Below are positions 1,678-24,550 of a DNA stretch of 64,000 nt, one piece after another (the first letter of the stretch is position 1; each line of letters begins with the position of its first letter). Origin of the DNA: Psammoneis japonica (lineage: Eukaryota); NCBI GenBank assembly GCA_008632985.1, contig QPGO01000013.1, positions 682,001 through 746,000 on the forward strand, in the 5' to 3' direction. The position numbers and the translations under genes are program-made. Under the pieces are notes generated by a model. That model saw nothing but the letters and a program-made list of their open reading frames with translations, was not told the DNA's origin and made no database searches.

Positions 1678-4600
1678 ATGATGGCTAAGAATCTCTTACG
1701 ACTGTTGTTTTCTTTAACATTGACAATTATTACTGTCTTGAATGTCTTGGCAACCGTGAATAATATCCCGGGAGACACGCCCTTGTATGAGGTCCCGTTT
1801 CTCATGTCTCATGCTTCCGCCACAGGATACCTTGGTCGAAATGACATTGATTTGTATACAAACCGACAACAAGATGATGAAACTCCCGAGGATATACTCA
1901 TAGCATGGTCCAAGACACAGATTGGCAATATAACGCAACAGTTGAATTGTGGAGCACGAGCCTTTGATTTGCACCCCCACTTGACACTGAATCTTGAATT
2001 GGCGATGCATCATGATGCCGTTGTGATTGAGTATCCCTTCAGGAGCGTTTTGGAGGAAATGAACGATTGGATGTCCCTTCGTTCTGACGAGTTAATATTT
2101 GCTCAAATCGGCCCTTGTAAGAGTGACTTGCGAGAGCTAGATGAGCTGTGCAATGAGCATGTCAAGCAAGTCTTGGAGGAAATGAACATACCGTACATTG
2201 ACGAAAATGCGTGTGTCACTCTAGAAACAATGTCTTTGGACGAGGCCAAACAAATGGGCTCTATTCTTGCCGTTTCAAAAGCATGTGTGGAACAAAACTA
2301 CAACCCAGACAATGTATGTTCGGGATACGAGTATCAATCGACCGGCGTGAGCCGCAAATTTTATTGTTGGGTCAATCTCACCAATCCTGCGTATCCCGTA
2401 AACCGATTGTTTGAGTACTTGGACACTACAGTCGAGCAACAACTTCATCATCAATTGTGGTTGGCGCAAGCCCATTGGCAGATTCAACCCGAAAGTGTCC
2501 TTGTAGGTGGCTCACACGGATCATCGATTCTCGCCGACACGCTCTACTCACGCATCAATCGATTTGTCTTTGGCAATCTGACGACACAACGGTGGAACGA
2601 CGGATTCAATTTCTTGGCTGTGGATTACGTTTGTGATCAAGGAAACAATATTGCTCTTGCACTGACAGACGATAGCATCGCTTTAGAGGATTATCCGGAC
2701 GACGTTGTCATTCATAACACAGGCATTCACGACAGCATTTTGAGGGGCGAAAGTGTCTTGTTCCCCGACGTGCCACCCAACTTTGTTGCCGAGGTTTTTC
2801 AAGACACTGTCGCTATTCGACGGCATCATGAGAATGTGAGATTTGGAAACACCAATGATATTTACGACTTGATCATGGCGGAAAACGAAGACAAGCGGCA
2901 AGAGTACCTTGTCGGAGTCTTGGGTTCCTTTATGGTCATGCCGGAGTGTTTGTCTTTTGGTAAGTACATGATTTGAGCAAAGAAAAGTTTTCTATTACTG
3001 TACGGTATATTCTAGCTAAAAGAGGAACGTTTCTCGTGCTCTCAGGGCGTGTTTGCTCTTGTACCTGAAACTGTCAAGGAGACTCGATTGGTTGGTCCCA
3101 AAGACACCTAACGATGAGCCAGAATGCATGCCAGAGGACGAGAGCTCCCGTGATGACTTTGGTGATCATACCACGGGTGTGAAGCCACGTTGCTTTCGAA
3201 AGATATGCATTGGAACAAATATGACGCGAATTCGTGTCGCTGTCTTGCTTGCTGGTGTCTTTCTTCTCGTATTTTCTGGATTGCTCATTGGTTCGGGATT
3301 CAAAGCCGTTGCCGACATGTTGGATTCAACCAGCCTTGCCGGTTAGTTGCAGATGTGACACATTTGTGGATCTGTCCTTGTGCGTACTCATGTTTGCTGT
3401 TTCCATTTGTATATATCAAGGAGATTCGTTCGCTGCTTGCGAACGCGAACCACGCGACGGACGACTTTTTAATCCAAGCGAACCAAACTGGAGAAGCAGC
3501 ACGCAACTGCTTCAATGCTGTTTTGAACAATTGTGTCTTCACTGACAACAGCCTTGGCAATGTGACTGGCATCAACGAAACGGAAATTGTAAAGAATGCA
3601 GAACGAATCTTGATCGAGCTATCCGAAGCCATACGTGGTCCTCCTCTACTAGTACCGGAAATAACCTTTATCAACCAATCCCTGACTGACGTGCAGGGGA
3701 TTCTTTTGGACGCTGAAGATCAGGTTGACAAGGTTGGCCATGCCTATCTATTTCCGATTGCGACTGCTTTTGTGCTACTGATTGATATCATGACAATTGT
3801 GTTCCAGGTTGGTGTCTTGCTCGCCTGGAAGAAGCAAATGCCTAGATTGTTTAACGACTGTACCAGCAAGGTTGCAGTTCCATTGTATATGCTTCTCATA
3901 TTTGTTGCTTATTTGCTCTCTGGCCTGGCAACTACTGGAGCGACGTTGACTGCGGATTTCTGTATTGATACTCCTGACAACCAGGTTCTCCGACTCATGC
4001 CGGTCGACCCGCCGTTTGACGAGTTTCTCGAATACTACATTAGGGTATGTACAACAATATTTGTGACGCACAGTGCTCAGACAATGCTTATCATTCGTTT
4101 GTTCTATCGTTTCTTTCGTCCCGATTCGTCAACAGGGATGCGGCAAAAGAGTCAGGCCCGAATTGCTCGTCGACGCTTTCAAGGCATCCGAAATTCTCAT
4201 TCTTTCGATCAATGATCTCTTGACAGACTTGTACAATCTCGACCGTAACTCCGTTCCGTGCAATAGTACGAGCTTTGTGTTTGCCACAATTGGTGATCTT
4301 CAGCAAGAATACAACGGCTACGTCGACATACTCTACCGTGTCTCTCAGGAAATGAATTGTGCGAAAATCAATCCAGTCTACACCTTGATCGCCTATCAAA
4401 GTAAGTTTTGACAGGATCCCGCCTGTTTTGGTTGTCAACACGTCAATGTTCTCACCTTCGAATTCCCCTTCGGCCCTTTACTTTTGCTTCACAGCAACTT
4501 GTATCAACGGATTTGATTCCTTCCGTTATATTTTTGGCTACTTTTTGGGACTGTCTCTTTGTGGCATGGCAATAGTAACGCTTCGTGTAGCATTTTATGA

Positions 4601-4784
4601 AGTGGACGACGGACAAGATGGCGCTCGTACGTGCAGTGTTCGCAGTCGTGAAGGAAAGGAGCACGCGCAGGAAGTGGACGAGGGCGTTGAAGAAATGGAG
4701 GAGGCTCACCCAGAATCAGTGTCAAAAGCGAGTTGCTCAGGGCATGGTCTTGTTGCAGTCAACATGCGGAATTCCTCTAGCTAG
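1678..4784 (+). CDS. Secreted PI-PLC X-domain-like phosphodiesterase fused to a multi-pass (Tweety/prominin-like) membrane domain; 5 exons (~1678-2959, 3046-3341, 3421-4044, 4136-4400, 4495-4784)
   Basis: Signal peptide; PLC-X-like motifs FLMSHASATGY, QLNCGARAFDLHP, MHH; GT-AG introns at 2960-3045, 3342-3420, 4045-4135, 4401-4494; several hydrophobic helices and DFC..PD / C..INP.Y / TCING motifs. Paralog at 24551. Confidence 0.75.
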
Positions 4785-5020
4785 AATAGAATAGGTCCTA
4801 CTAGTGAGGGAGGATGCGACAAAAGTGTGCCGTGCTCGCAAACCGCAAAAAGAAAATTCGTTGACTTGATCCCGTTGGAATTTTTGAGACATCACATTTG
4901 TCACACACTTCTAATACTATGGCTAGTTTCTCGAATCGAGTCTCTCTAGAGTAGAGAGCTACTCTAGCCTAGTAGCTAGAGACACATTGACTTGTCCTCT
5001 TGTCGTCTCGAGATGTGCAA

Positions 5021-5142
5021 TACTACAAATTGCAAAACAATTGCGCGATACACGTGCGCGAAGGTCGAATATCGTTGCCCGAAGCAACATTCTTCCTTCG
5101 CGCAGGCAATCACGTAGAACCACGTAGAATTTGTACCAAATG
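5021..5142 (+). repeat. Left arm of imperfect inverted repeat (partner 7367-7463)
   Basis: tactacaaattgcaaaacaattgcgcgatacacgtgc...aatcacgtagaaccacgtagaa matches the reverse complement of 7367-7463 (tactacgaattgctaaacaattgcgcgattcacgtgc...aatcacgtagaaatacgtagaa). Confidence 0.75.
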
Positions 5143-5754
5143 CCGTTGCACTTTCTTTTTTGCCTCCGACCCCAGTGCAAGTGGGGTATTGTATGAGTAA
5201 ATTGAGAAGCAACGATGGATCGGTGCAATAGCATGGAGATGAGATCAAAATGGGAATTTCAACCTTTGCTTCCAAGCAGTATGATGGATTCGTGGCGGTT
5301 TCCAAGGCACGGTATTCCGATTTTGAGGTATGATATTTATGGAAAAGTTAATGATGTGTGCATGTCATCCTTAGTTGACATTAACGGAAACATGGCTCGC
5401 CTTGATTCATTTGCAGTGTTGAGCGACGAGGAGAATGACCAGAAAGATGAGGGCAACAACACTGCCAAAGAGGATACTGAATTGAACCGAAAACGCAAAG
5501 TGAAGAGTGACGAGTCTTCTCAAACTAGTAGTCAAGACGATTTGAGCTCTACATTCATCCCATAACCGGCGCTACCCGAACTAACATTCAGGGAGGTATC
5601 AGTAACGGAGAGAATATTGTGATTCGAGTTGTGTTCAAACCGACATCCACTATTGGGCATGCATAGGTAAGAAGGATACGGCAAGAGCATATTTCTCTTG
5701 CGCACTGTATTCAATGAAGCTCGCGCTACTATTGCAATTCACTTGTCGTAACAG

Positions 5755-6011
5755 GAAACGGTCACACGAGATGGTCAGAAGGTGGAACTTTGAGGCAAGG
5801 GCGTGCTATCCCCATAGTAGAAGCCATGGTCGCGCTCACGCTGATGGATGCTCTCATGATGCAACAGGCGCAGTGTGAACTTTTTCCCAATGAGGCTGAT
5901 CAAGATGCTAAACCATACCCCAAGGGTGCAACTGCTCACCGCGATGGAGGACCTTGGGTGGTTGTCTCAGCCTCCGACGATCCGATCAGTCAACGTGTTG
6001 ACGAAGAGTAG
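5755..6011 (+). pseudogene. aroC: Chorismate synthase 3' fragment (orphan last exon)
   Basis: ETVTRDGQKVEL*GKG then RAIPIVEAMVALTLMDALMMQQAQCELFP matches the chorismate synthase C-terminus. In-frame TGA, loss of the RHDPCV motif, frameshift, no upstream part of the gene. Confidence 0.7.
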
Positions 6012-6088
6012 TGTCGATGCTATCATACGAATTATATAGACGGTAGATCCTGACTGTGCTTTTAAAGTGAAATGAATTTTGGTACTTC

Positions 6089-6445
6089 ATTAAGGTTAAC
6101 TCGGCTTCCTACGTATACGATCTAAGCCTCCTCAACTTCAAGTGATACCCTACCAGTGTTCATAGACAAGCACCATGTTATTTCTAATCGCTTAAGGCAA
6201 GGTTAGATCGGCTTTCCTATACGAACTAAGCCTCCTCAATCAACTTCAGGTGATACCCTACCATTTCATAAACAAGCTCCATGTTATTCTAATCATTTAA
6301 GGTTAACTCGGCTTTCCTATTATCTCAGCCTCCTCAATTTCAGGTGATACCCTACCCTACCAGTTCATAGACAAGCACCACATTATTTCTAATCGATAAC
6401 GCCCTGCTTAAGGTTACCTCGGCTTTCCTATGATCTTCGCCTCCA
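6089..6445 (+). repeat. Tandem repeat, ~105-bp unit, about 3.3 diverged copies
   Basis: Unit taaggttaactcggct(t)tccta...agcctcctcaa...gtgataccctacca...cata(g/a)acaagc..catgttatt(t)ctaatc recurs near 6090, 6195, 6297 and partially at 6407. Confidence 0.85.
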
Positions 6446-7366
6446 GAAGAGGCAATGAAGCACTTGGCGATGAATTCGGCCTCCTCCTGACGGGCAGCAA
6501 CAGCTTTCATCTTCTTCAATTGCTTCCTACGGCTCAAACCACGCCTACCACCAGCAGAGACTTCACGCATGCTTTCTCTGTTGCGCTTTATCTTTTCTTA
6601 CTTGGCATTGACAAGGCGTCAGTAAAGGGAGGTCGCCGTCCTGGTCACTCCAAATGATGCCATGGGAGCAAATGCCTGCGGAGAAACATCACAACGACAA
6701 AAAGTCGGAAGTTAGATTTCCTGATGATGAATGTTTTAGTAATGACAGATTGGTACACAATTGTAGGGAACAAGAGGAAGTAAAAACGACTGATGCTCGG
6801 TCAAGACCCTAGACAGTATCAAATGAACTCGACAGCGACGAACAGTGAATTGGACTGAACTGCCACATCGCAGTTGAATACTCTCCATTGAAACCACTTC
6901 CACACCATCGACAAGGGCCTAACTTACCTCGATGGAAAGAGCCATAAAGGCACCTCGGGACAGGGACCAAAAACGATGCTCCAGTGGTCCGGTGAGATTT
7001 CATCGTCGTTCGTCGTGCTTTGTTAAAGCAAAGAAGTCGTCGGCTAGCATTTAGCTCTCTGCTCTCTCTGCTGAAAATGTACATTACAAGTGTCGAGGAA
7101 ACACCTATCAAAAAAAGACTTTCTATCTTCGAGTCTGCTTCATTTTTTCGGTATCTCCGTACATTCAATCTTCTTTAGTTGCTCGATGATTTGTTGGCGA
7201 GTTGGCCCTGGAACTTCTATGATATAGTTCCTCTCGTCGTCTACTAGTAGTGTATCACCACCAGCAGCACCAGCAGCATCCTACCATAAGCGCTTCTGAG
7301 GCGAGCGCGTTGAACAGATCGCTCATGGTGACAGCGACTGCGAAAGCAGTGTGAGGTGAGATGAGT

Positions 7367-7463
7367 TTTGGTATGTTTTCTACGTATTTCTACGTGATTT
7401 GCGGCGCGAACGGTGAATGTTGCGGGCACGTGAATCGCGCAATTGTTTAGCAATTCGTAGTAG
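7367..7463 (-). repeat. Right arm of imperfect inverted repeat (partner 5021-5142)
   Basis: Reverse complement aligns with 5021-5142 apart from a ~25-bp indel. Confidence 0.75.
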
Positions 7464-7718
7464 TGACTGTACGACTTGAGGTAAATAGGCAAAATAAATA
7501 GGGCTAATAAAATACACAGTACAGTACACGGAATAAGAAAATAAAGAAGATAAGTAGGCCACGCACAGAATTTCAAAAAGCCGTCTGTCATCGGGGCCCA
7601 CATTCGAACACATATTATATAAAAATACATACATAACATGTATGTATAAGATGCAATCCAAGCATGCCATCGCATCATCATGCATCATGCATCATTCATC
7701 CATCATCCCTTGAAGCTC

Positions 7719-10661
7719 TTAAAAGCCTCGCTCCACTTGGCGTGTCCCACTCTTTGTTTGCAATAGCCACAACCTGGCCACAAGCGGCATTTTCTGCTCT
7801 TCCGGGCATGTTTCTGTTTGAACGAAACGCCCGCAATCGATTGATTCTTCAATGAATTGCTCGACCGACTCGAAGACGCCACTGGTGTCAAGTTCGGCAA
7901 AAAGTACCGTCGTGAATTCTGAATCATAGAAGACGGAGGTAGCCGTTGAATTCCATGATCCCAACATCAAAACGCGCGAGTCAATGAGGGCCATCTTGAA
8001 ATGAAGGCACAGCTCGCCCTCATTCCATGTCTTATCGCTGGACGCCGGAACGTAGATATCGACACCAATATTTAGAAGACTCATGAACGCCTTCCTGAAG
8101 AGGGAGTTGAAGAAGAACAAATCATTGGTGCTCGTAGAGTTCGTAACGAGACGGACCTTGACTCCTCTAGAGACTGCACCCGCGATGGCTCTTTCGACCG
8201 GCTCGAAAAGCTGAAAGTATCCAAAAACTAGATCGATGCTAGTCTCAGCGGTCTCGATAAGAAAGAGTAGCGTGGACAAAGTAATATCGTGGCCGTCGAT
8301 TCTCCCCGCTTTGTGATCAAGCTGAAAGATGGTAACATCACTCCCCAGATTTCTTGAAGATCTATTCGACACTTGGCGGAAAAACCTAGTTTCGCGTTCT
8401 CCGGAGTTTTGCTCCTCGTTGACATCAATGGATTGCAAGGCCACCGAATCGTCGTGATGAACAGCTTTCCCATTCTTGGCGTCATCCCTCAATGCATGGT
8501 TGATGCTTCTTCCTCCGTTCCATAATTTCTGAAGCAGCTCAACCGTTGATTCGGTGAAAGGTCCCTCGAGCGCGATATCAGCATCGTGAAATGAAAATCC
8601 TCTATTTTCTTCCATGAGAGAATAGGAATCGTCCGTATTTCTTCCACCTGTCAGCATCCAACGGTCGTCGATGAGCAAGATCTTACGGTGATTCCCAATC
8701 AAATATGCTGGAACCTTCTCCTCGTACAGGGTACTTAGCATTTTGATTTCAATGCCAGCCTCCAAAAGCCTCAAGGCAATTTCTCGGCAAACGGAAGTCT
8801 CCTGGTCGAGTTCACGCTTTGCTTCAAGGAACCTCAAGTTCACGGCATCCAGCATAACATGAACTCTCACACCTTTTCGGTGTTGCTTGATAAGTTCATC
8901 TGCGATTTGGTTTCCAATATTTCCATCGAGCGACCATGTTACCAGCCAAATATTGGACTCTGCCCTACGGATTAGCTCTATGCGCTTTTCGAAGGCAACG
9001 TCATTTTTCAGCAGGACGTTGCAGAGAGTTCCTTTGACTTCCCAATATTGCTCGTCGGTTCCAAGCTCGTCAAATACCTGAAGATAGGCTTGGAGATCAG
9101 ACGGAACTAGTCTTGAGGTATCTGCCGCCTTCGGTCCCTTCTGGATGATGCTGTTCTCCAGGTGGAACCCAAAGTAGCTGGTGCGCCAATCGCAAAACCT
9201 ACCAAAGAGAAATCCTTCATAGTGATTAGGCATAAAGATCTTGATGGCTCGGAATACTACTTTGTATCCCCAAGGATACGGGGGGGAGAACGGCCAGCCA
9301 AACTTGGCATCCTTGGGGTAAGCAATGCGTTTGACGACGATAAACGCCGCGGTGACCAGTACAATCAGGGGGCCAAAGAAGACCAAGGCTTGTACCGTAA
9401 TGGATGCACCCTTGCTTTTGGTGAAATCGATCAAGATTGTTTGAGCCTGGAAGATTCCTGCGACAATCGCTTGGACTCCAGCATTGTGGAAGACGTTGGA
9501 CCGTGCCACGAAACCGGGGGTGAAGTCCTTGAGCTTGTCCAACCAGAGCGCAAAGGCAGAGGAGAAGGTGTCACTGTAGAGGCCACCAAGAAGCAGTCCA
9601 TAAATGAAGAGACCTGCTTTTGCGGCTTTTTCTCGGTGTGCGGGTCCTTCTACGATGGCAGGGCTCACGCCAATCATTGCACAGAATACGACAGCCATAC
9701 TCGCGCATCCAGAAAGCACTCTTGTCTTGCTATCTCGGTCAGAGCCCACTTTTAGCGCAATAATGACGGATATTGTGCCACCAATGGGGAAACCAATGGC
9801 AGCAATCCAAAGGAAAGTTGGCTTGAGGCCAAAGTACTGCTCCGTAACAACGGACATGGTCCCGAATGCAAGGTTTGCAGCCGCCAACAGGATTGAGTCC
9901 AACGCGAAGTACTTGAAGACAGATGACTTGAAAAAGGACTTTACCGTCTGTATCACAGTCTCTTCTTGCCGAGCGATAGTATCGCGATCAATACGAGAAG
10001 CTGAAAGAAAGACCATGTCGGCACTGAAAAGGTAGAATCCGATTCCTGTCGCTCCGAGAATGGCTGCGCTGTACGCAGTAACAGAACCTGTGTTGGCACT
10101 AACCGAATTCACAATGGCCAAGCATATGCTTGGCAAAAGAAATCCGATACATTCAAAGGCTTGTCGAATCCTTGCAATTTGATCCAACTTGATGAAAAAT
10201 GTGTTTGTGAGGGTCTGGTAATTGACGAACCACATCGCCGTACCATAGCCACACAGACTGGCACATAGCGCCATTGACCTGAAATCTGTCGACAAGAAGA
10301 GACCAATGAAGCCCGAACTCATTGTCCCCACTGACAGACAAAAGAATCCGAGGGCTCGAAGTTTGCTACCAAAGCAGATGGTGGGAACCCAAAGAAAGCA
10401 GAGACCTGTGACGAAATCGGCAACGCTGTAAATGAGAAAGAGCATCCCAGCGGCGGCCACTCTGTATTCATTGGCCAGGACATGCTCTACCAAGAAGAGC
10501 TCTAGAGACAGACGAAATATCCTGTAGCCAGATATTGCAGCTGAAAACCTTGCTTTTTGCCACGACGAGATGCTGGTTGTCCCTGATTCTCCTCCAGTCT
10601 GCTGGCCGTGACAGGTGCCAGCAGTTGGGCTGTTGTTTGCTTGGTTCATCAATGGTTTCAC
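7719..10661 (-). CDS. MFS-like transporter fused to a phospholipase D / cardiolipin synthase-like domain (980 aa, intronless)
   Basis: The N-terminal ~440 aa hold about 12 hydrophobic helices. The C-terminal half has two HKD motifs (HRKILLIDD...TGGRN and HFKMALIDS...LGSWN) plus cls-like RIELIRRAESNI and GVKVRLVTNS. Confidence 0.85.
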   Translation of the reverse strand: MKPLMNQANNSPTAGTCHGQQTGGESGTTSISSWQKARFSAAISGYRIFRLSLELFLVEHVLANEYRVAAAGMLFLIYSVADFVTGLCFLWVPTICFGSKLRALGFFCLSVGTMSSGFIGLFLSTDFRSMALCASLCGYGTAMWFVNYQTLTNTFFIKLDQIARIRQAFECIGFLLPSICLAIVNSVSANTGSVTAYSAAILGATGIGFYLFSADMVFLSASRIDRDTIARQEETVIQTVKSFFKSSVFKYFALDSILLAAANLAFGTMSVVTEQYFGLKPTFLWIAAIGFPIGGTISVIIALKVGSDRDSKTRVLSGCASMAVVFCAMIGVSPAIVEGPAHREKAAKAGLFIYGLLLGGLYSDTFSSAFALWLDKLKDFTPGFVARSNVFHNAGVQAIVAGIFQAQTILIDFTKSKGASITVQALVFFGPLIVLVTAAFIVVKRIAYPKDAKFGWPFSPPYPWGYKVVFRAIKIFMPNHYEGFLFGRFCDWRTSYFGFHLENSIIQKGPKAADTSRLVPSDLQAYLQVFDELGTDEQYWEVKGTLCNVLLKNDVAFEKRIELIRRAESNIWLVTWSLDGNIGNQIADELIKQHRKGVRVHVMLDAVNLRFLEAKRELDQETSVCREIALRLLEAGIEIKMLSTLYEEKVPAYLIGNHRKILLIDDRWMLTGGRNTDDSYSLMEENRGFSFHDADIALEGPFTESTVELLQKLWNGGRSINHALRDDAKNGKAVHHDDSVALQSIDVNEEQNSGERETRFFRQVSNRSSRNLGSDVTIFQLDHKAGRIDGHDITLSTLLFLIETAETSIDLVFGYFQLFEPVERAIAGAVSRGVKVRLVTNSTSTNDLFFFNSLFRKAFMSLLNIGVDIYVPASSDKTWNEGELCLHFKMALIDSRVLMLGSWNSTATSVFYDSEFTTVLFAELDTSGVFESVEQFIEESIDCGRFVQTETCPEEQKMPLVARLWLLQTKSGTRQVERGF

Positions 10662-11549
10662 GTCTGGATCCAGAGAGAAAGAGGGTTGTTCGCGATTACT
10701 CTAGACTCTCCAGAGAAGGCCTTCTGCCTTGATTGTGGCGTGTCAAATCAAAAACATACAACAGCCGCAGTCGTACGGTGCCGTAAACAGATTGTGATCA
10801 CCATCTGATCTGATCTACTTGAAGTTCTGTACAATCGTACTAGGTGTATTGTACGTACGATTCTACAGCCTTTTTGTTCCGCGACAACCTTGTGTAGAAT
10901 CGTACCGCTATGGTTCGTAGGACCGAACGGAAAGAAGAATTGTACTAAACATTCGTACCATTCAAGTAGTAGTACGAACGCAAATAGTCGTGATGTACAG
11001 TGCAAGTACCCATTATTTATTTTATTTTACTCTTGATCCTCCAGGCGTCACATAATCAACCAATACTTATACGGTTACAATAAAATGTCAACTAAATGAA
11101 GCCGGCTCTTCTGCTAGTCTAATGCGCTGCTATCTCTCTCAACCTTACAGTTCATAGTACTAAATAGCTAGAGAGAGCCGGCCTAGAGGTAGGCAACAGG
11201 TACTTACATATTGTTCACTTGTCCTGTTAAGACCGGTTTGTCCCCCTCACTCATTTCTCCTCGCAGCGGATACCGTACTAATCGTGTATGCCGGGCTAAA
11301 GCCATTTTCACCGGTAACGAAGTTTTACTATCTAATTTTAGGACATTTCAGAAAGCGTTCTGTCCTGCCTCTCAAACCCGGCGCGCGAGATCTCTGCCAA
11401 ATAATGCGTGTGTGTAGAAATGCCGGCACGCACCATATGGATCACGCAGAAACTTTGTAACCGGCGGACTCAACCGGTCCCGCTGCCCGGCTCAACAGTC
11501 AACCGGTCCCATCGGCTGACTGCCGTAAGATGCTGAGCGACACACAATT

Positions 11550-12815
11550 GTGCCTGCCTCTAAAGAACAACAAAATGCCATGAGTCATTTTTAAAAATTG
11601 ATTGCCCAGCTTTTCATTCACCATCAGAGAGGTGAAAAAGAGTGCACCAGTCACAGGGCATCATTTGGTGCTTTGACCGAGCAAGTGTGCTCTCAGATTC
11701 GTTGCACCGGCACATCACTGGTTGAAGTGCACACTCACTTGTTGGCAGTTGACCTTTTTCATTTGTGCTCCACATTTTCATTTGGCCTGCACACGATCAT
11801 TGCCCACGGCCAAAACCACCCATTTTTCACATTCCCAACAATGTCCGTGCCACCAGCCTGGCATCGCTTTGTTGAAATCTTTGCAGTTGCATTTGATTGT
11901 TGCCCTGAACATTTCCGTTCAGCAATTTTTTGAAAATGTCATTGAAATTTTTGCATTCGATGTTTTCACGTTGGAATGCTGACATGCTCAGTTGTCAGGA
12001 CAGTGCAAAGAGCAAGGCGACCACAAATCCACTTGGCTCGCTGAGTGAAGCGACTTGCATTGTAATTTGTTTGTCCTCTCTGCAACACTTCCAAGTTTTG
12101 CTGCAAGTTTTGCTAGGGAGTTGTGATGTTGTGGATGGCCGTTGATCAAAAGGCTGGCGGAGACATCATCAAGGTAAGAGATCGCATCAAACGAGAAGCT
12201 TTTCTGAGTCGCACTTGTGCTTGGCACAAAACAACCAGACAAAACAGGCACACTGCACAAAAACAAGTTTTGCTGCAAGCTTCATTGGAGAATTGATGTT
12301 GAGCAAGATTCAAAACTCACACCAGCAGCATGGCCATTTCCAATGACACAGGGGCGGAACAAGACGAGGGAGTGATTCTCAGGTCTGATGGGTGTCATGA
12401 ACAAGCTTGAGAGCATCGCCAACAAGGGGCTCATGGAAAAGGAGGCCATTGCAAAGAAGAGAAAGTGTGCAAGGTTGCTCAAGCACTTTGTCCTGAGCAA
12501 CTTGAGCCCAGCAAAGGAGGGCACAGAGACGATGCAGGGCACCAACAAGGAAGAGCAAGGGATGGTGGCCGAGAGCCAAGAACAAGTCCTTTGAGGAGCT
12601 GGTCATGGAGATCAAATGCAACATCATGAGTGAATGACTTGGTTGATGGGAAAATTTTGTGCAGAACAATTTCAGCCAGCCGTGCAAAACAAGCGGGGGG
12701 AGGACTTGATGACTTGGGGCCTGCTCCAGCTTCAGGTGATGCGCTGGGATTCGATTCCCATCACCGGCCATTTTTGCATTTAGAAGGGCAAGTGCACACA
12801 AAACATTTGTTTTTT
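11550..12815. mobile_element. TpA-depleted degenerate element, left part (host of the Copia insertion)
   Basis: Nearly TA-free; similar sequence resumes after the Copia TSD at 19704-20085. No family motif recognised. Confidence 0.5.
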
Positions 12816-13127
12816 TGTTTTGACCTGAAGGTGACAAGGCAACCGTTGTCAACCGTTGTTTGACAAGTGCAAGGGTCCTGTTCACCTGAAATGAGTTTGA
12901 TTGGCTGGTTGATCTGCCAGACACAATGAAAGTGTCATCATCTTCAACTCACACTGTGTCCCACATGTGGCTGGCTCGGCACTGGAAAGTGAGACCATTG
13001 ATGAGGTCTTTGACATGTTGACAACATTGGTGCAACAATGAGAAGTCCACTCAAGGACCTTCTCACAATCTTGACAGTTTGCTGTTTTGTCAGTGAATTG
13101 TGCAGTTCTGTCGAGACACTTTTAGCA
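12816..13127 (+). repeat. 5' LTR
   Basis: tgttttgacctgaaggtgacaaggc...gacacttttagca; direct repeat of 19382-19698. Confidence 0.92.
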
Positions 13128-13142
13128 CTTTGTCAGAGCCGC
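13128..13142 (+). promoter_or_regulatory. Primer binding site (tRNA-Met-like, mutated)
   Basis: ctttgtcagagccgc directly follows the 5' LTR and resembles ..TATCAGAGCC with a TA->TG change. Confidence 0.6.
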
Positions 13143-13161
13143 ACCCCAACCAACTGAAACC

Positions 13162-14735
13162 ATGGCATTCACAGTGGCGCAAACCACTTCCTTCTTTGAG
13201 GATGATGACCAAATGGGTTTGCCCAATGCACTCAAGTTCAGTTGGCTGTTGAGGGTCTCGAGCACATCAACGACATAACGGACTTTGATGAGGACGGTCT
13301 CCAACAGTTGTTTGAGAACCTCAGGCATCCAGGAAGTGCAGCACAAGACCCAAACCCTGGCGCAGCTGCTGGTGCTGTCATCCAAACACCAGCATTTGTC
13401 ATTGGTGCCAAGAGTGTGATGCATCTCAAGGTCACTCACCAAGTGGCACTCTGCTGCACAACGGTTTGGCCGGGACCTGTCAGCTGCCAACATGCCTGGA
13501 ATTCTGTCCTTGAGAATTTCAGGAAGCTTGGAAGGCTCTCCAGGACAGGAAGCAGGAGGACAATCCTGATGTCCTAAAGATCTCCAAACCCCTGCCAATT
13601 GTGAAGTGGACCAAAGCCTTTCGTGGTCACCTCCAGCATGTGATCAGCAGTTGGGCTGCTCCACTTTTGCACGTGACACAGAAGGCGGTCGTGGTTCCGG
13701 CAGCTGTGCCCACACTTGCTGTGAGCCAACCGCTTCCCGATGATCATGGTTCCCTCAAGGATGAGCCAGTGGCATGTGCCAACCACACTCATCCATTGTT
13801 TTGAGAGGATGACTCCTTGGTGTGCCACTCACTTGAGGAGGCCACCTGCGGGACCTCACACACAGCCTTGATCAAGCCATTCCAGTGCAAGAAGGATGGG
13901 AGAGGGGCATGGACAGCACTGATGACACAGTGTGCCAGCAAAGACAAGTGGGCAGCTGAGCTCAAGAAACAAGAGGACTTCATCCACACGTGCAAGTGGA
14001 AAGCCCAATCGAGTTTCTCTCTTGACCGGTTTGTGTCCCAACACCGCAATGCCTTTGTCTTGATGCAACAGGAGTGCACGGAACATGTCACCTGCCAACT
14101 CCCGAACAAGTGCTTGAGGGTCACGTGCCTTTTGGATGCCATCAAGACTTCCAATGCACTGTTGCAAGCTGCAATGGCCTTGGCTCACAATGACAATGGA
14201 CAAAATGGACTTCAAGGTGGCAGCCACTCACTTGTTGCCCTGCAACCCTGTGGCAAAGAAGCGTGCTGCAAAGAGGCCTCATGCAGAAGAAGTGTCTGCA
14301 ATTGACTCCAGTGCCATCAAGTCAGGCATTGGAAACACTGGCGTAGAACTTCAGCTTCACACTCCATCCGAGCATTGCAAATTGAAGTCCAAACAGAAGG
14401 CTCAACTGAAAGAGTGGTGAGAGAGCCAGGGTTCTTCATCGCAGAAGAAGAAGAAGGATCCAAAATTGTCAGCAGCAGCATGTGGTCAACAGAAGAAAAT
14501 CAAAAAGATGATTTCAGAAGCCATGGCAACTGAGCCAGCTTCTTGTGATGAGAACGAGCAACCTGATTCTGAGGTCAACAATGCCAAGGCAGGCACTTGC
14601 CTGCTTTCCCTTGTTCAGGCGGCATTGTCAACGGCCCCAGTTGCCACTCAGGTGCTGCCTCCTCCACCACCCCCTGCTCAGGCACAGTCAGTTCAGTTCA
14701 AGCCACCCTCTGTCTCGTTGCAGCCCATGCTGTGA
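13162..14735 (+). pseudogene. Copia gag, disrupted
   Basis: ATG after the PBS; fragments EGLEHINDITDFDEDGL..LRHPG, KKDGRGAW.AL, KWKAQSSFSLDRFVSQHRNAF; multiple frameshifts and TGA stops. Confidence 0.75.
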
Positions 14736-14889
14736 CGTGCTGGTGCTCAGAAATGAAATGCAGGGACAGTGCTTTGTTCCCATGTCTCCTTGCTTGAGGG
14801 GAGAACATGCACCTTTTGTGCCATGGAATCGCAGTCACCAATTTCCAATCACTCTGCACTGCAATTCATTGCTCGTCATGTGATCTCCA

Positions 14890-17800
14890 ATGCCCAAACA
14901 AATTGAGACAACTGAAGAGACCCAAGATGAGAGCAAATCACACACCGAGCTGGACTCCCATGCCAATGTGGTTGTTGTTGGCAAGGGATTGCATGTCCCA
15001 AATGATGCCAGTTGCACAGCTCAAGTCAGCCCCTTCAATCCCGAGTGTGAATTGATGAAGGATGTCAGGATTGTGGAGGCGCTTCTTGCACACGATTGTC
15101 CACATTCCTTGAAGACATGCCTGCTGGTCCCACACAACACCTTGCACATTCCAGCGATGGACCACAACTTGCATCCACCCTTTGTTCTGTGGGAGGCAGG
15201 GGTGATCATCAATGATGCACCCAAGATTCAAGTGAGAGGGCAAAAGCCTGCAGAGTGTGACCACTCCCTGGTGTTCTCAGAGACAAAGATGAGGACTCCC
15301 TTGTCTCTCTGGGGCACATTCTCTTGCTTTCCGTCAAGATGTCCAACACTGCAGGAGAGGCAAGAAACAGAAGATGTTCTGATTCTCACTCCATTGGGAC
15401 ATTCTTGGAACCCTCCTTGCTCAGATTCCTTTGCTCGCAATGAGGAAAGCATGTTGGACTGGGGAGGAAATGTGGCTGACAAAAGGAGGGATCAGATTTG
15501 GATTCTGGCAGATGACTTGCCAGATGAGGATAAAGAACTGCGCCTCTCTTCTGTTGCATCAAGCATCAAATTGCATGTTGTTGATCACAACTTGTCTGTG
15601 ATTGACCATTTCAAAGCTCGTGATGACCTGAGCAGATGTTGGGGGGCCATTGGTGAAGCCGACAGCTCCCGCGCAGTGATGTGTGACATTTCTGCCACTC
15701 TTGACCCTGCCCCACTTGCTGAAAGCTTGCAGGACCAATGTGATGTTTTGGAGTCTTTGCCTCCTTGGCAGGCTCTGCGACAGTTGGAACTGAAAGTGAC
15801 TCAGGCTGAGATGACAATGTCAATTTTGACATTTTCAAGGATTCCCAACTTGAAGACATTGTTGAAGACCTCATGGAGTGCTTCAAATCTGACCCAAGGT
15901 GGATGTTGGAGGGACCATGGCATCCAAGCCCAAAAGTGCATCTGCCAAACACTTGTCCAAGATTTGGAGAATCAGCGCCAAGGATGCCAAGTGGACCACA
16001 AACAACACCACACAGGACCTGCAATGTTCTGAGGATCCTGCTCTCTTGCAGAACTTTCTGCAAATGACAGGATGTTTTGACATTGCCAAATCACCCAACA
16101 CTTCTTTGTGAACACCTTCTTTGCAAGTGAGAAGGCTGGAAAGTCTGCACGGGGTTGCTCGTGCATGCAATTGTTTGTCACGGACAAGGGCTTCATGTGC
16201 ATTGTGCCAATGCATGCTTGTTCAGAGTTTCCCCAGGCTCTCAAGATGTTTGCCAAAGAAATGGGTGCGCTGGAGGCAATCACATGTGACAGCGATTCTG
16301 CACAGAAATCAGACAACATTTGCCAATTCCTTCATTCCATTGGCACCAGTTTGAGGTTGCTGGAAGAAGGAGCACCATGGTTGAATTGTGCTGAGCTCCA
16401 CATCAGATTGCTGAAGGAAGCAGTTGGGAAGGATGAATCACTCTGCCCCTTGCCCTTCTGGGACTGCTGCTTTGAGCAACAAGCTTGCATCAACAACCTG
16501 ACGGCTTGCAACCTGTTCCAACTTGAGGTGAGAAACCCACCTTTCTCTGTGACAGGGGAGGAAGGCAACATTTCCAACCTTGCTCAATTTGGATGGTGTG
16601 AATGGTGTTGCTTTCATGAACACACCAATCCCTTTCCCTTTGACTGCAAAGTTCTTGGTCATGTCCTGGGCCCAGCGAAAGGGGGGGGGGAATGAGATGG
16701 CCCAATGGGTTCTCAAGGGCAACGGCAACATTGTCCCATGGCATTCTGTGTGATGCCTTGTGGTTGCTGAGTGGAACAGTGACACTGAGAAATGGAAGCG
16801 TGGCACATTTGACCAATGTGTTGAGTCATGCTGAGGATCTGTGGTGCATCCTGTGCCTTCCACAGGCAAACAATTTGTTCAACATGGTGATGAAGACAAG
16901 AAACTGCATGATCTCCCTGAGTTTGACAATCCGGTTGATGCTGAAGGGAATGGTCTTGACCCAGCTCCTTTGTGTGACAGGATGATCCATGCCAAGGTTG
17001 GGGAAAACAAGCTCCGACAAGCCAAAGTCATTGGCTGAGCTGTGGATCCTGAGGGGCATGCTGTGGGCACGTGCAATGACAACCCAATTGTGAACACCTT
17101 GATGTGCAAAGTCGAGTTTCCTGACAGGGAGACAAAGGAGTGTGCCGCCAACATGATCATGGAGAACATGCTCTCTCAAGTCAACTCAAAAGGATGCACT
17201 CTGAATGTGTTTGACAGCACACTTGATTTTGTCAAGGTTGACACCACACCAACCAAGGACAACATGCATGCCAAGGTTGGGAAGCAGTCTTGACTGTGCA
17301 AGACGACATGTGGATGGAAGTTTCTTGCACTGTGGAAGGACGGGACCAAGTCATGGGGGTTTCCCTCAAGGACATGAAGGAATCCCACCCCATTGAAATG
17401 GCTGGTTTGCCAAAGCAAGGGGTGCAGATGATGAGCCAACCTTCCGATGGTGGACACCACACACACTGTGCAAGCAAGATGCAATTGTGTCAGTGGTTGA
17501 GGCACGTGTGCGACGTGTTGCACACAAGTGTGGAGTCAAGCTCCCTGCCTCTGTTGGAGATGCACTTGAACTTGACCATCAAAATGGAAACAAGCTGTGG
17601 GAACAAGCCATTGCCAAGGAGATGCATGACGCCAGTGGTTGGTCCAAGCAGTCAGGCCACTTGATCTTTGATGTCAAGGTGACCATGGCCAGGAAGGCTC
17701 AATGGGTCCTCGACGGACACAAGACTTCCAACCCCAAAGGCTTGATGCATGCCGGCATCACATCTGGGGAGAGCACACGAATTGCTCTTGCACACACCGC

Positions 17801-19200
17801 TCTGAATGACATTGATGTCGTGGCGGCTGACATCCACAACATGCACCTGCAAGCCCCTTTGTCACAGAAGCACTGTGTCATGTGCGGCCCTGAATTTGAC
17901 CTTGACAATGTTGGCAAACATGCCCCAATTCATTGTGCTCTGCATGGTGGCAAGTCTGTGGGGTGCAACTTTCGGAATTGTCATCTTTGCGCATGCATGT
18001 CACATCTTGGGTTCAAGCCATGCAAAGCTGACCCTGATGTGTGGATGCATGAGGCTCTCAAGTCTGATGGGTCTGAGCATTGGGAACATGTGCTCCTGCA
18101 CACGGACGACGTCTCATGCATTTTGAACAATGCAGAGAGCATCCTGTGGAAGGAAACTGGCAAATGCTTTCTGCTGAAGGAGGCGTCAATCGGCCCTCCC
18201 AGTTTGCATCTCTGGGAGGCCACTTGCAAAAGGTGCCACTTGCAAATGGAGCAAAGGCATGGGCCTTCAGCTCTTCTCAGTGCACTCAAGGTGGCAGTCA
18301 AGAACATTGAGACCCACCTGGGAGAGAGAGGCATGAAGCTGCCCACCAAGGCCCCAACTCCTCTTGGCAGCTCGTGTTGTCCCGAGGTTGACAGCAGCCC
18401 AGAACTGTCACCATTGGAGGCTGCACACTGCCAGTTGCTCCCTGGCATTCTGCATTGGATGGTTGAGCTTGGGCATGTCAACATTTGTTTAGAAGTGTCC
18501 ATGATGTCTTTGCATTTGGCCCCACCTTGCAAAGGACACCTCGACCAAGTGTGCCATGTCTTTGCACACCTCAAGAAGCACCATGACACGGAGATGGCAT
18601 TTGATCCCAGCGACCCTGTCATTGATGAAGCTTTGTTTGCTCAACAGGACCAGACCACCTCCAAGTTTGGCTTTGCAACTTCTGAGGAAATGCCTGCTGA
18701 CATGCCCCAGGCAGGAGGAATGGGCATGTTGTTGTGTGCTTTTGTTGATGCAGATCATGCAGGTGACTTGATCACTTGCCAATCTTGCACTGGTTTCCTT
18801 GTGTGCCTGGCTGAACTCTGCACCTGTTCGCTGGATGTCTGAGAAACAGACAAGCACTGAGACAAGTTCATTTGGGTCTGAGTTTGCCAGCATGAAGCAA
18901 TGCACAGAGTGCATTCATGGGCTTCATTGCAAGCTCTGGATGATGGAGATCCGGCAGTTGGACCGGCACATGTGTGTGGTGACAACCAGTCTGTTCTGGC
19001 AAACACCTCTGTCCCTGACTCAATGTTGAAAAAGAAATGTCACAGTTTGGTGTGCCACTTTGTTTGTGAGGGTGTGTCCCGGGACAAGTGGTGACGGCGC
19101 ACGTCAACACACACTTGAATCCAGCAGATCTTCTCACCAAAGCACTCCCACCAGGAGAGAAGCACAATCAGTTTGTCAGAATGATCTTGCACTGCCTTGG
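14890..19200 (+). pseudogene. Copia pol (protease, integrase, RT, RNase H), disrupted
   Basis: PR TELDSHAN; IN QLFVTDKGF..ALKMFAKEMG; RT HLIFDVK..RKAQWVLDGH, DIHNMHLQAP, KADPDVW, HTDD; RH FVDADHAGD, ETSSFGSEF, GDNQSVL, NPADLLTK. Confidence 0.9.
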
Positions 19201-19366
19201 AGGGAAGGTGGAGGGTTTTGTTTGGACTTCCCGCCAACGAAGTGTTTTTTTTTTGTTTGGAGATCCCCACTTGATGGATGTTTGTGTGAAGAAATTCACC
19301 ATCGCATGTTGTTGTGCATCCCAATGTCACCAATCTAGCTTGATGACCCGACCAAGTCCAGAGATT

Positions 19367-19381
19367 GAGGATTGAGGGGAG
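19367..19381 (+). promoter_or_regulatory. Polypurine tract
   Basis: gaggattgaggggag immediately precedes the 3' LTR. Confidence 0.8.
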
Positions 19382-19698
19382 TGTTTTGACCTGAAGGTGA
19401 CAAGGCGAACCATTGCCAACCGTTGTTTCACAAGTGCAAGGGCCTTTGTTCACCTGAAACAAGTTTGATTGGCTGGTTGATCTGCCAGACACAATGAAAG
19501 TGTCATCTTCAACTCACACCATGTCCTGCATAAAAATGTGGTTGGTTTGGTTCTCGAAAAGTGGTGAGACCATTTGATGAGGTCTTTGACGTTTTGAGGA
19601 CACAAGTGTGACATCGAGAAGTCCACTCAAGGACCTTCTCACAATCTTGACAGTTTGCTGTTTCATCAGTGATTTGTTCTGTCAAGACACTTTTGGCA
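19382..19698 (+). repeat. 3' LTR
   Basis: tgttttgacctgaaggtgacaaggc...gacacttttggca followed by the TSD ttttt. Confidence 0.92.
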
Positions 19699-20539
19699 TT
19701 TTTGTGTGCACTCACCTTTCGATTTTTGAAATGATCAAATTTGAAGGAGTTTTTGTGCTAAACTGCACTGAAAATTGGCTTTTTGCATGATGGATTGCGC
19801 ATCACCTGGAGCTGGAACAGGCCTTGGGTGACAAGGGGGAGACCACTTGGCAAGCTGTGCCAAGGTCTGTGAGCTGGAGCTGATGGCAGTTTGGCAGATA
19901 AAAACCAATGAGCACAATGTGTTGCCCTCTGCAGATGGTCTCCATCTGCATGCACACACACACTTTCTCTTTGCTGTTGAGAAGAAATGGGGCATCTTCT
20001 GCTGCTGCAACCTGGTGGCTCGTTGTGTGTTCCAACCACCCCAGGACGTGTTCCAGTCCCAGGTGACGCACAAAACGACAATCGGATTTTGAATATAATT
20101 TATGTATATTTGAGTGTATATAGCATTTTAATAAAAATACTTAGACGGATTGACTTTTATAGGCTTCTAGAGTATGTACATTTAAATAGTTTTTTGAGGG
20201 GTATTCAAATCTTCATGGGATATGTATCATAAACTTCCTCAGTAGACTCAATACTGATTGTACGTCAGTAGATTTATACTGAGATTTTTTTGTAGGTAGA
20301 AAACCTACCAAGTAGCATCGTAGAAAGATATATTTAGTTAACATCATAATAACGGCAATATTTTCGCCGAAAATCATCCGTTGTGTTACGAATCTTTTAA
20401 TGCAATGAAAAACATAGATAGCACAATAACAATGATATTGCAACACTCACACGAGTCTTGTTAGTGTTGCAAAACAATTTATATTTGTATAAATCTATAC
20501 TTTTGGTGGTGAAAGTTCGATCGTAAGTTGTTAGGGACC

Positions 20540-23500
20540 GCGCAAAAATCGCGCAAATGTCGTTTTTGTGCACGATTTGGTTCACGTGCGGCTGGAACAC
20601 GTCCCAGGAGGCATTACAGACCTCCCAAGCCGGGAGTGCCCAGGAGGCAGAACTCCTCACTGGATTTGAGTGGGATTTTGGATGCAGCATGATTTGTCAT
20701 CTGCTGCACTTGGTTTGTTTCACACAGGTGTGTGTGTGTTCTTGGCTCAGTGTGCTGTTCTTGCACAATGCAGCTTTGCCAAAAGCCACATGGCTTCTCA
20801 AACAAACAAGAATGAGAAGGAACAGCAGTGTGCACTGATTTCACAATGCACATCTTTTGGATCCTGTGGTGGCCTCTGCATGGAGACTCATTTGCTGCTC
20901 AGATGGCAGCAAGCAGCCATTGTTCTTTCACACTGGACTCCTCTTCATTTTCTGTCAGACTGGTGGCCTTGGTCCATTGAGTGTTCAAGAGCATGTCAGT
21001 TTTTTTTTGTCAATGTGTGCTGGCATTTGCACAGTGGAAGCACACTCCTCAGGATGCTCTCATTGCCTGACACACCAATTGACCCAGACTCTCTCATTCC
21101 CAGATGCGCTAAAATTTGGCAACTGTGCTTTGTCTGACCTGTGCAAGGTTCCTCATTGCTGCGTGCATTGATGAAATCATCTGAATCCAATCTCCATTTT
21201 TGCCACTCCTGCTCAGGGTCACCAGATGTGCCAGCCTCTTCAACTAGGCTTTTGTGCTCTGTGCACACTTTTTGCACACACACACCAATTCTGGCCCTGC
21301 TGCATGCATGCCAAGTCCACTGCTCCACATCTGTGCCAGACTGCTGGTCCTCTGCAGCTCTGCAAGGCAATGTCTGCAAGGACATCTGTGAAAGGAAGCA
21401 GCCATGGTTGCAGCCCACCTCGAGTTTCAAGGTGTGCTTCCTGCATTTGTTCATTTGCTCTCAAGCATCTGCTTGGGTCACTCAACCAGTGCACAACAAC
21501 AAAGGTTTGGGGTTGTTGTCCACCTGCAAGTTTGCTTGCACAGGGTCTCCAAATGCTGCTCTCTGCTGCTGGCAACAAAACACCCAAAGAGCCACCACCA
21601 GCTGCAGGCCCAGCTGGACATCATGCCAGAACAACTCTGTGGGCCAGACAGGATGCTCAGCACTCAGCTGCAAGCAGGGCAGCAAAGCCCGGTGGCTTCT
21701 GGTTTGCAACATGGCTTAATTTTCAAGTTGCATCAGCCAAGTTCAGCTTCCAGCTGCCTCTGGCCCAAGTTTTGGCCATCCTTCTGCTTGCCACCATGGT
21801 TCTCACCAAACAGCAGCAAACTGAGCTTTGAGCACATTGAGGCACTGTGCCAGCTCAGAACACAGACAGCCCCCTTCACTCTGCCTTGCTGCCTTGTTGA
21901 TGGCTCTGACTTGCATCATGAGGAGTTGTCCATGTTCATGCCTGACCAGATTGATGCTCTCATTTGCAACAATGGTGCCACAACCAATGGTCATTGCGGC
22001 GCAGCTGCCAACACCTTCCAGTGGCTTTGACTGGCTTTTCAGCAATGTGAAGGGCGTGGTGGTGTGGCGCTGATGTTGGCAGCAACCCTCTTTGTCCACT
22101 CCTCAGAGCATGTGTCACTCCTTTCTTGAAGTGCAGCTCCTCCATCTGCTCCTGCACCTGACTCAATGCCACCTGCCCCATGCATGCACCAGGCGCTGAA
22201 AAAGAAGATGTGTTGCGACTTTGTCGTTGTGAAAATTACAAGCTGGTTTAGAGCAGAGAAAATGGGATTGTGCGAATGGGGAATCTTGCCAAATCCCTGT
22301 TCGTTCGCATTTGGATCGCATCAAATCGATCGTGTGTTCACATTGTGGATCGTGCGAATCAAGCCATCACGCGCCATGCACGAGTGATGTCATCGTGTGG
22401 AATCACGCTGCCATCGTGGGCCAGACGATGGGCCAGTGTGCTTCACACGGATGCTCTCTTAGCATCCTTCTGGAATTGCCTGAGACCTGGAGCCACGCCC
22501 TCCTGTGGTCGTGCTTCCCAGGTGCGCATCAACAACACTGCGTTGCCACGTGCAAGAGGCTTGTGCATGGTCTCGCCGTGTTGTCGAGAAAGAGTTGATT
22601 TTTGGTGGCCAACGACAAAGCACAATGAAAAAGCAATTGTGCATGACAACAAATGACAAACATTTGATCTGTGACCCCTGCAGAGAGTGGAGCACAACAC
22701 CTTGCAGACAAGTCTCCATGCAGAGACCATCGCAGGTGCCCCTGTGAATGATGGGGACATGTGTTCCAGGATCAGGAACAGTTTTTGGTCTGGCCAGGTG
22801 GAAGTGCTTGGTCTCATGCCTGTGATGGCATGCCCAGATGCACAGACACCCAGATGGCTGAGACACTCAGTTGGTGTGGCTCGAACCCAAGCCCACTTTG
22901 GCATTCTCACCAGAATGTGCCATTGTTGCCAACAGATTTCTGTTCCCTGACTGAGGAATGAAGTGATCTGTTGGCACCTGCTGTTGCTGTTCTCCATTGC
23001 ACTTTGTAACTTTTGTTTGAACATCAGTGCAAGTTGAGCTTGCATCTCTGACATGTCACATCAGCCTGTCTGGGTGCGCACGCATGTGTCAGAACAGCAC
23101 GACACCTGCCTTCCGGCAGGTGTGGACGAGTGCAAACTTTCATTCATGAAAACAACAAACACTGCATTTTCGTCAATTACAAAAGCAACATTGTTTTCAT
23201 TTGTCAGCAATGGAATTTTGCCAAAAACAATGTGAAAAACAACAAACATTGGAAGTGTGAGCTGGGACATTTCGATTGGATCCATGACGCCTGCAGCAGA
23301 GGTCTGGGGCAGAGAGTTCTGCTCACCACATCCACCTGACATCATCAACACTCAAGTGCAGAGTGGAGCAAGAGTGAGTCACTCTTGTTCAAATTCTGTC
23401 ACACCACCAACAACATCTGCCCCACACTCTTTTGTTCTCTCTGGCCCCAACACGCGGGGGCTGCTTGGCCACAAGTTGGTTGATGACAAGGAGCAGTGCG

Positions 23501-24240: not shown

Positions 24241-24550
24241 CAGTGCTCGTCTCGTGAAAAGCTTCAGGACTTAAGGCTAGAATTTCAACTTCCTTTATTT
24301 CCAAATCCTCGTTTCTCTGATGAAGAATTATTTATTTCGATTTTTTTTTTGGAATTTTGACTCGGGCTGGCGCGACTGGTCGGTCGTCCGGTCGTGTGTT
24401 TTTCTTTTTTCTTCGCGTCCTCGCTCCTCGCCAAGGGCATCGTCGCGAAGCCAAGAGTTGAGTGTGGTTTACTACTGCTCAAGCCTTTGTTAAACCTTGA
24501 AGGAACTGGGTAATTGAAAACGGCGCTTTATATTTGCTTTAGAGGAAAAT

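Follow-up and report, generated by a model that had tools for sequence, protein, structure and literature searches.

Conversion of CpG to TpG or CpA is the classical outcome of the deamination of 5-methylcytosine. In fungi, repeat-induced point mutation (RIP) changes C:G to T:A, mainly CpA to TpA, and enriches TpA (PMC2621366), and retroelements are known targets of RNA and complementary DNA (cDNA) editing of the ADAR and APOBEC types (PMC4866542). In diatoms, Ty1/copia retrotransposons of the CoDi type have been described (PMC2806351), and a term search of that description did not find the words dinucleotide, deamination, hypermut- or point mutation. Here we analyze a stretch of 64,000 bp from the diatom Psammoneis japonica (contig QPGO01000013.1; hereafter, the window), in which the segment at 12816-19698, judged from its sequence, is a dead Ty1/copia long terminal repeat (LTR) retrotransposon that resembles the CoDi-type elements in its LTRs, its 5-bp target-site duplication (TSD), its TG...CA ends and its RVT_2-type polyprotein. 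This element lies in one of five bounded domains in which TpA is almost absent, CpG is depleted, and TpG and CpA are in excess. We consider it likely that insertion of the element was followed by domain-wide hypermutation of the chromosomal DNA, in which both TpA and CpG were turned into TG or CA.

The five TpA-erased domains total 23,734 of the 64,000 bp, with observed/expected (o/e) ratios of 0.03-0.05 for TA and 0.17-0.62 for CG. They are found at 114-1451 (4 TA, o/e 0.05, with mild CpG loss, CG o/e 0.62), at 11562-20093, which comprises the copia element and the older repeat that it entered (15 TA, o/e 0.03; CG 0.28, TG 1.76, CA 1.73), at 20533-24238 (10 TA, o/e 0.04; CG o/e 0.30), at 43194-50440, where CpG loss is strongest (25 TA, o/e 0.05; CG o/e 0.17), and at 57166-60076 (7 TA, o/e 0.04; CG o/e 0.26), and in every one of them TpA loss is more complete than CpG loss. 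The changes are restricted to these domains, whose edges are sharp in 500-bp bins and no more than a few hundred bases away from ordinary genes, and whose G+C content is 0.47-0.52. In the pooled domain DNA (22,154 bp), o/e ratios are 0.04 for TA, 0.25 for CG, 1.80 for TG and 1.82 for CA, versus 0.61, 0.98, 1.16 and 1.13, respectively, in the normal DNA of the window (39,104 bp), the remaining 12 dinucleotides being essentially as in normal DNA. Compared to normal composition, the domains show a deficit of 828 TA and 959 CG, a total of 1787, and a surplus of 1845 TG plus CA, and thus the gain balances only when both losses are counted.

The polarity of both changes is provided by the codons of the element, for which we used a set of 373 codons with at least 60% agreement among aligned relatives (45 homologues of at least 1000 aa). 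Not a single one of the 16 conserved Tyr codons still encodes Tyr: nine now encode His (CAY), three Cys (TGY), two Trp, one Phe and one Val, with CAY or TGY thus present at 12 of the 16. The 18 conserved Arg codons now read Arg (4), Gln (4, all CAA), His (3, CAT), Cys (3, TGY), a stop (1, TGA), Trp (1), Leu (1) and Ala (1), with TGN or CAN at 12 of the 18, and so CpG is a source along with TpA. Other conserved codons have been retained (Lys 14/14, Trp 11/11, Phe 14/15, Asn 10/11). A second test, based on a MAFFT alignment of 29 relatives, produced a similar picture, with 8 of 15 Tyr columns now reading His, 2 Cys and none Tyr, and with 5 of 16 Arg columns now reading Cys, 3 Gln, 3 His and 3 Arg. 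The protein predicted from the element's open reading frame (ORF) contains 0% Tyr versus 4.0% in the relatives, 12.5% His plus Cys versus 4.3%, and 2.3% Arg versus 6.5%. These codon losses imply that TA became CA or TG, and that CG became TG or CA, after the sequence last encoded a working protein. An earlier note on this DNA had proposed that a TA/TG difference between the LTRs shows the TpA change directly; the codons establish TpA as a source, and the single LTR site is the weaker evidence. Low TA is not a trait of the family either, because in the 80 related copia loci retrieved by a metagenome scan with a six-sequence reverse transcriptase (RT) alignment TA o/e is 0.48-0.88 without exception; CpG loss alone (CG o/e of 0.36 or less with TA of at least 0.50) is present in 10 of these 80.

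The timing of the changes is recorded by the two LTRs, both on the forward strand and both running TGTTTT...GCA. The 5' LTR of the degenerate element occupies 12816-13127 (312 bp, TG...CA ends; 1 TA, 4 CG, 41 TG, 32 CA), and the 3' LTR occupies 19382-19698 (317 bp, TG...CA ends; 1 TA, 5 CG, 37 TG, 31 CA). They form a direct-repeat pair of 83.4% identity over 325 columns including gaps (blastn), or of 89.1% identity when only ungapped columns are considered (33 mismatches in 304). When the two were aligned and the mismatches classed by dinucleotide, interconversions of TA, CG, TG and CA made up 16 of the 33 mismatched columns (MAFFT). All the sites quoted in the earlier note are present (aaaTGagt/aaaCAagt, cacTGtgt/cacCAtgt, tccCAcat/tccTGcat, tttTGtca/tttCAtca, ttTAgca/ttTGgca, tCGagac/tCAagac and aacCGttg/aacCAttg), along with one more TG/CA site, gtgCAaca/gtgTGaca. 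Double mismatches of TG versus CA number four with a global aligner or five in the MAFFT alignment, in which there are also six single-step differences between pyrimidine-purine (YR) dinucleotides, three CG/CA, two CG/TG and one TA/TG. The TG/CA discordance is real rather than a product of chance: when 33 random substitutions were placed on the 5' LTR, in 20,000 trials per setting, TG/CA doubles averaged 0.39 with 70% transitions (P of four or more, 0.00035) and 0.79 with transitions only (P of four or more, 0.0049). Two control repeat pairs in the normal-composition DNA of the window (34 and 49 mismatches) have no TG/CA doubles among eight adjacent double mismatches, and neither do the LTR pairs of the related metagenomic loci (three of the 80 have one), in 0, 38 and 16 mismatches. 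The discordant pair is the sole one of its kind in the window.

That the two LTRs belong to one insertion is supported by their surroundings. A TTTTT copy of the TSD adjoins the 5' LTR (12811-12815) and another adjoins the 3' LTR (19699-19703), the low complexity of this 5-bp sequence making it weak by itself as evidence of a TSD. In the single public DNA run matching the locus (X1), contigs from other copies of the flanking repeat fuse 12816 to 19699 without the element, in the manner of an empty site, and because of this direct junction the flanking DNA must itself be a repeat, with other copies free of the insertion. No RNA run matching the locus was listed. As two LTRs of one insertion hold discordant TG and CA states, the view that the mutations arose after insertion is upheld.

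The erased domains are also symmetric with respect to strand, with 2669 TG versus 2677 CA. TG and CA follow one another in random order (runs-test z from -0.46 to +1.94, autocorrelation about 0), and no strand-coherent runs of TG or CA, of the kind expected from RIP or from a processive deaminase, were found in these domains. Equal numbers and random order indicate that resolution took place separately at every palindromic site and could fall on either strand, and, together with the LTR discordance, they agree with the proposal of the earlier note that the change took place at the level of DNA, and not through RNA editing or RT error. The TAs that survive are predominantly flanked as TTA or TAA (44 of 56, versus 585 of 1623 in normal DNA; Fisher p 2.9e-10), which suggests a preference of TpA erasure for VTAB sites. 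Considering a TA loss of at least 95% versus 4.5% of ordinary LTR divergence, and if the element began with as much TA as intact relatives have, the rate of TpA loss would be roughly two orders of magnitude above background, and it appears to exceed the rate of CpG decay in the same DNA.

Erasure of TpA is separable from decay of CpG. One example is the high-copy segment at 22180-22620, with TA erased (3 TA, o/e 0.12) and CpG intact (28 CG, o/e 0.95), and another is the domain at 114-1451 with its mild CpG loss. A third is presented by public relatives of the element, 6 of 150 of which, from JGI/IMG, Logan and ENA, contain less than 1% Tyr. Of the 54 cells of these six at conserved Tyr columns, 45 hold His or Cys and 2 hold Tyr, yet Arg is kept in 35 of 49; six ordinary control relatives keep Tyr in 61 of 72 cells.

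The hypermutation also has a bearing on dating. LTR divergence is 10.9% at all sites versus 4.5% outside YR dinucleotides (7 of 154 columns), and so LTR divergence overstates the age of the insertion about 2.4-fold, as the earlier note had anticipated. The same note had further held that a TG/CA pair needs a palindromic ancestor, TA or CG. Involvement of TA and CG is borne out, and the requirement proves too strict, as a site may also flip after insertion via a transient CG or TA; the TA versus CG origin of individual discordant sites is not separable from the LTR pair alone.

This flip provides the most serious of the alternatives to be weighed: the discordant sites may have been TG or CA at insertion, a transition in one LTR then creating CG or TA, which hypermutation turned into the other form. 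With 59-73 TG/CA dinucleotides per LTR and ordinary transitions at 5 of the 154 non-YR columns, about two such flips are predicted (hand arithmetic, from 59 sites) versus the five discordant sites observed, a Poisson P, also by hand arithmetic, of about 0.04-0.08. In addition, the half-decayed sites in the LTRs (five CG/YR, one TA/YR) mean that palindromic sites did exist after insertion. We therefore consider this alternative unlikely, while giving it some weight, and it still relies on the same hypermutability of CG and TA. Another alternative is that decay of methylated CpG alone explains the discordance, the absence of TA being an inherited compositional trait. CpG is depleted (o/e 0.25), the LTRs show five CG-versus-TG/CA sites and just one TA-versus-TG site, and CpG loss alone, being found in 10 of the 80 related loci, is common in the element lineage. 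However, for the domain as a whole this account is already contradicted, because no conserved Tyr survives out of 16, 12 of them being one TA-to-CA/TG transition away, because TA o/e is never below 0.48 in the 80 related loci, because a TG plus CA gain of 1845 requires the TA loss of 828 in addition to the CG loss of 959, and because TA is erased at 22180-22620, where CpG is intact; we regard it as very unlikely. Changes preceding integration, through ADAR-type RNA editing, APOBEC-type cDNA editing or RT error, would be in line with retroelements being known targets of editing, but both LTRs are copied from one template and yet are discordant, such editing is strand-specific and clustered as opposed to the nearly equal and randomly ordered TG and CA, and flanks outside the retroelement, as well as the other domains, have also changed. 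The LTR discordance and the strand symmetry thus exclude these mechanisms for practical purposes, and the probability we leave to them is close to nil. Finally, many RNA viruses show suppression of two dinucleotides, CpG and UpA, and selection against both in RNA, rather than mutation, could be envisaged in the lineage of the element. Such selection is contradicted by the loss of coding capacity, as conserved Tyr and Arg codons have been destroyed, including the position of the RT catalytic motif, which now reads LLHTDDV, and by losses that are strand-symmetric and reach into the non-coding LTRs and flanks, and it is the least credible explanation of all.

As to the possibility of an artefact, errors of base-calling or polishing at modified CG or TA, or polishing with paralogous reads, could have produced TG and CA. 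Contigs of X1, with a depth of 51-61 for the same locus, match the TA-free stretches at 15434-16141 and 16229-16931 with no differences and the one at 16933-19025 with two, so that stretches of 700-2100 bp are reproduced with 0-2 differences. The element has the broken frames and ordinary substitutions usual in a dead copy, and Tyr-free relatives occur in three other public sources, both speaking against an artefact. In its favor, at least four adjacent differences, at 12396-12397, 13727-13728, 22239-22240 and 24042-24043, have CA in the window versus TG in all or nearly all X1 contigs (among the 40 differences listed, with 1183 further), several indels are also among the differences listed, and X1 lacks 16% of the words sampled from the element. 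The assembly thus also shows TG/CA discordance with respect to other copies, to alleles or to the reads. On balance, the erased sequence appears to be real, and an artefact seems to us highly improbable.

Post-insertion hypermutation of chromosomal DNA at TpA and CpG thus remains our preferred explanation, and a number of points weigh against it. The evidence of discordance comes from a single LTR pair, with no outgroup copy to assign the discordant sites to TA or to CG, and for about two of the five the ancestor may have been non-palindromic, with a flip in two steps. Had the LTR entered with TA and CG at normal levels, or about 31 such sites as scaled from normal composition, about 10 discordant sites would be expected versus only five seen, so that part of the erasure may predate insertion, or the LTR may have begun poor in TA and CG. 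Base calls have been checked well but not fully, given the 16% of sampled words absent from X1, for which the type of library is not on record. A TA-rich insertion of 486 bp, of very high depth, sits untouched inside the domain. In three of the five domains nothing recognisable was found, and that these are transposons is presumed, and a base modification or an enzyme at TpA is something that we only infer.

If this explanation is correct, a Ty1/copia retrotransposon would have entered older repeat DNA at 12816-19698 in a diatom, and two dinucleotide-specific transition processes would then have struck five bounded stretches of chromosomal double-stranded DNA. One would have changed nearly every TpA into TpG or CpA, by an A:T to G:C transition on either strand, and the other would have changed most CpG into TpG or CpA. 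Palindromic sites would have been resolved one by one, with a strand choice of about 50:50, and independent resolution in the initially identical LTRs would have left some sites as TG in one LTR but CA in its partner. The domains presumably represent silenced transposon chromatin, and the TpA process may involve either a symmetric miscoding modification at TpA (for example, oxidised thymine or modified or deaminated adenine) or an enzyme directly editing TpA. It is a serious possibility, toward which we nevertheless lean slightly less than half-way, that this diatom and the sources of the six Tyr-free relatives possess a dedicated system, directed to chromatin, by which TpA in the double-stranded DNA of transposons is marked or edited. 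Such a system would convert essentially every TpA in silenced elements, outpacing methylated CpG decay, and would amount to a genome defence not recognised before, the counterpart of fungal RIP in the A:T-to-G:C direction, stripping elements of Tyr codons, of TATA-type and AATAAA-type signals and of TAA and TAG stops, with G+C content unchanged. If genome-wide, the hypermutation would also predict a base modification or a DNA-editing activity at TpA that is yet to be discovered, and the field of base editing would take an interest in a natural enzyme strictly specific for TpA in double-stranded DNA.

The body of the element has retained enough to be recognised. Remains of a copia polyprotein are present at 14905-19174 on the forward strand, in several frames, collinear with residues 37-1397 of a relative of 1422 aa (P0005), in an internal region (13128-19381) with o/e of 0.02 for TA and 0.25 for CG. 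A purine-rich tract (…GAGATTGAGGATTGAGGGGAG) at 19352-19381, forward strand, directly 5' of the 3' LTR, is, as read from the sequence, in the position of a polypurine tract, and the sequence following the 5' LTR (CTTTGTCAGAGCC) we take to be like a primer-binding site of the initiator-tRNA-Met type, save for one TA-to-TG change. The ORF at 17397-18842 has 6738 relatives at E of 0.001 or less, with the best at 4.9e-115 (HMMER, exhaustive search), and RVT_2 scored above the cut-off in all three full-length relatives scanned with Pfam. A Pfam scan of 25 stop-to-stop ORFs between the LTRs gave one match at chance level and did not detect the RT ORF of the element itself. A match to rve was found only in the relative P0008 (residues 398-451, E 0.12, below the cut-off), and this part of P0008 aligns to 16081-16677, 5' of the RT at 17430-19031. 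Relatives of the element are abundant in aquatic metagenomes; a scan of viral_contigs with the RT alignment returned 52 pattern matches and no relatives, and Rfam gave no matches over 11000-24500.

Targeting is not easily reduced to a single property. The stretch from 11.5 to 24.1 kb is multi-copy in X1, with a summed contig depth of 135-780, and far higher in parts, versus about 55 for single-copy DNA. The depth is highest across the mapped stretch, at 20,000-41,000, in the segment at 22025-22866, with its TA-free and CpG-rich core at 22180-22620; this segment represents a family of very high copy number, in which TA is missing and CpG retained. The unmutated insertion of 486 bp at 20076-20561 is TA-rich (56 TA, o/e 0.99; CG o/e 1.41; G+C about 0.34), is flanked by inverted repeats of 23 nt (20044-20066 and 20582-20604, 87% complementary), and has a summed depth of 3,000-22,000 versus about 55, with one contig joining 20075 to 20562 without it. 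It contains no ORF above 99 aa and no RNA family matches (Rfam), and no tandem repeats were found in 19400-23400. It could be a miniature inverted-repeat transposable element (MITE)-like element or an organelle-derived fragment. Its untouched state means that neither copy number nor location alone explains targeting: either the insertion is recent, or targeting follows sequence or chromatin identity, and not position or copy number. Local duplications (520 bp and 818/867 bp, 93-94% identity) show no hypermutation. These direct repeats, at 40385-40904/50477-50980 and 51631-52448/56118-56984, are of normal TA and CpG content, lack TG...CA ends or transposon domains, and bracket or adjoin TA-erased domains; a SYF2-like ORF is located at 50955-51479.

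With respect to the contents of the other domains, Pfam gave no match for 25 ORFs of these domains and three more ORFs, and homologue searches with the ORFs at 57598-58788 and 345-1325 found none. A single N is present at 48544, inside the domain at 43194-50440. With TAA and TAG gone, and only TGA stops remaining, long spurious ORFs arise in dead DNA, and open frames of up to 481 aa are seen on both strands (for example, 14884-16032, 17397-18842 and 57598-58788). In diatom genomes, such frames can lead both gene prediction and repeat annotation astray, and profile searches miss affected elements, as Pfam finds nothing in the RT of this one. Elsewhere in the window, long ORFs represent ordinary genes, for phospholipase D, phosphatidylinositol-specific phospholipase C (PI-PLC), COG7 and an ankyrin/ACBP protein, and a peptidase M16 ORF of 741 aa at 60279-62504 is matched best, among named sequences, by diatoms (Asterionellopsis, 67%; Fragilaria crotonensis, 62%). 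A local TA-rich patch at 34001-35000 (51 and 62 TA per 500 bp, o/e about 1.05) adjoins a LURP-one-related ORF (34922-35782), a tandem array at 6090-6444 (period of about 105 bp, about 76% identity) has TA-rich surroundings (44 TA in 6001-6500), and a diverged duplicate, 2317-4607/25175-27717 (66-74% identity), covers a gene region that matches PI-PLC-X weakly, not far from the full PI-PLC gene at 30007-31650.

In the full-text literature we found no report of hypermutation of transposons from TpA to TpG or CpA; as subscription journals were outside this search, its absence from print is not proven. Among known systems, ADAR and APOBEC hyperediting is alike in leaving clusters of A-to-G or G-to-A transitions fixed in retroelement copies, but it acts on one strand and before integration, unlike the changes described here, which involve both strands and independent sites, follow insertion and extend to DNA that is not of retroelements. 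Decay of methylated CpG is alike in the strand-symmetric loss of a palindromic dinucleotide to TG and CA in transposons, and the CpG half of the pattern (CG o/e 0.17-0.62) is likely of this nature, but such decay cannot remove TpA, for which o/e falls here from 0.61 to 0.04, with TA making up 828 of the 1787 lost sites. A likeness is also seen with fungal RIP, in the dinucleotide-specific transitions, in the sharp-edged transposon blocks next to normal genes, in the destruction of coding capacity, and in family members being made hard to recognise, in this case to the point that Pfam misses the RT. As to the trigger, RIP responds to duplication; here two duplications and the high-depth 486-bp insertion are unaffected, and the affected 11.5-24.1 kb stretch is multi-copy. 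Some diatoms possess DNMT4 enzymes that are related to fungal RID and whose function is given as unknown (PMC9998398); being cytosine methyltransferases, these would not explain A:T-to-G:C changes. Unlike in RIP, TpA is not enriched but erased (o/e 0.04), by A:T to G:C changes that leave TG at 1.80 and CA at 1.82, G+C stays near 0.50 with no AT-rich isochore, and TG and CA do not form strand-coherent runs. If genome-wide, this would be a second, mechanistically different transposon-directed hypermutation besides the fungal one, acting on A:T at TpA, in one of the main groups of marine primary producers.

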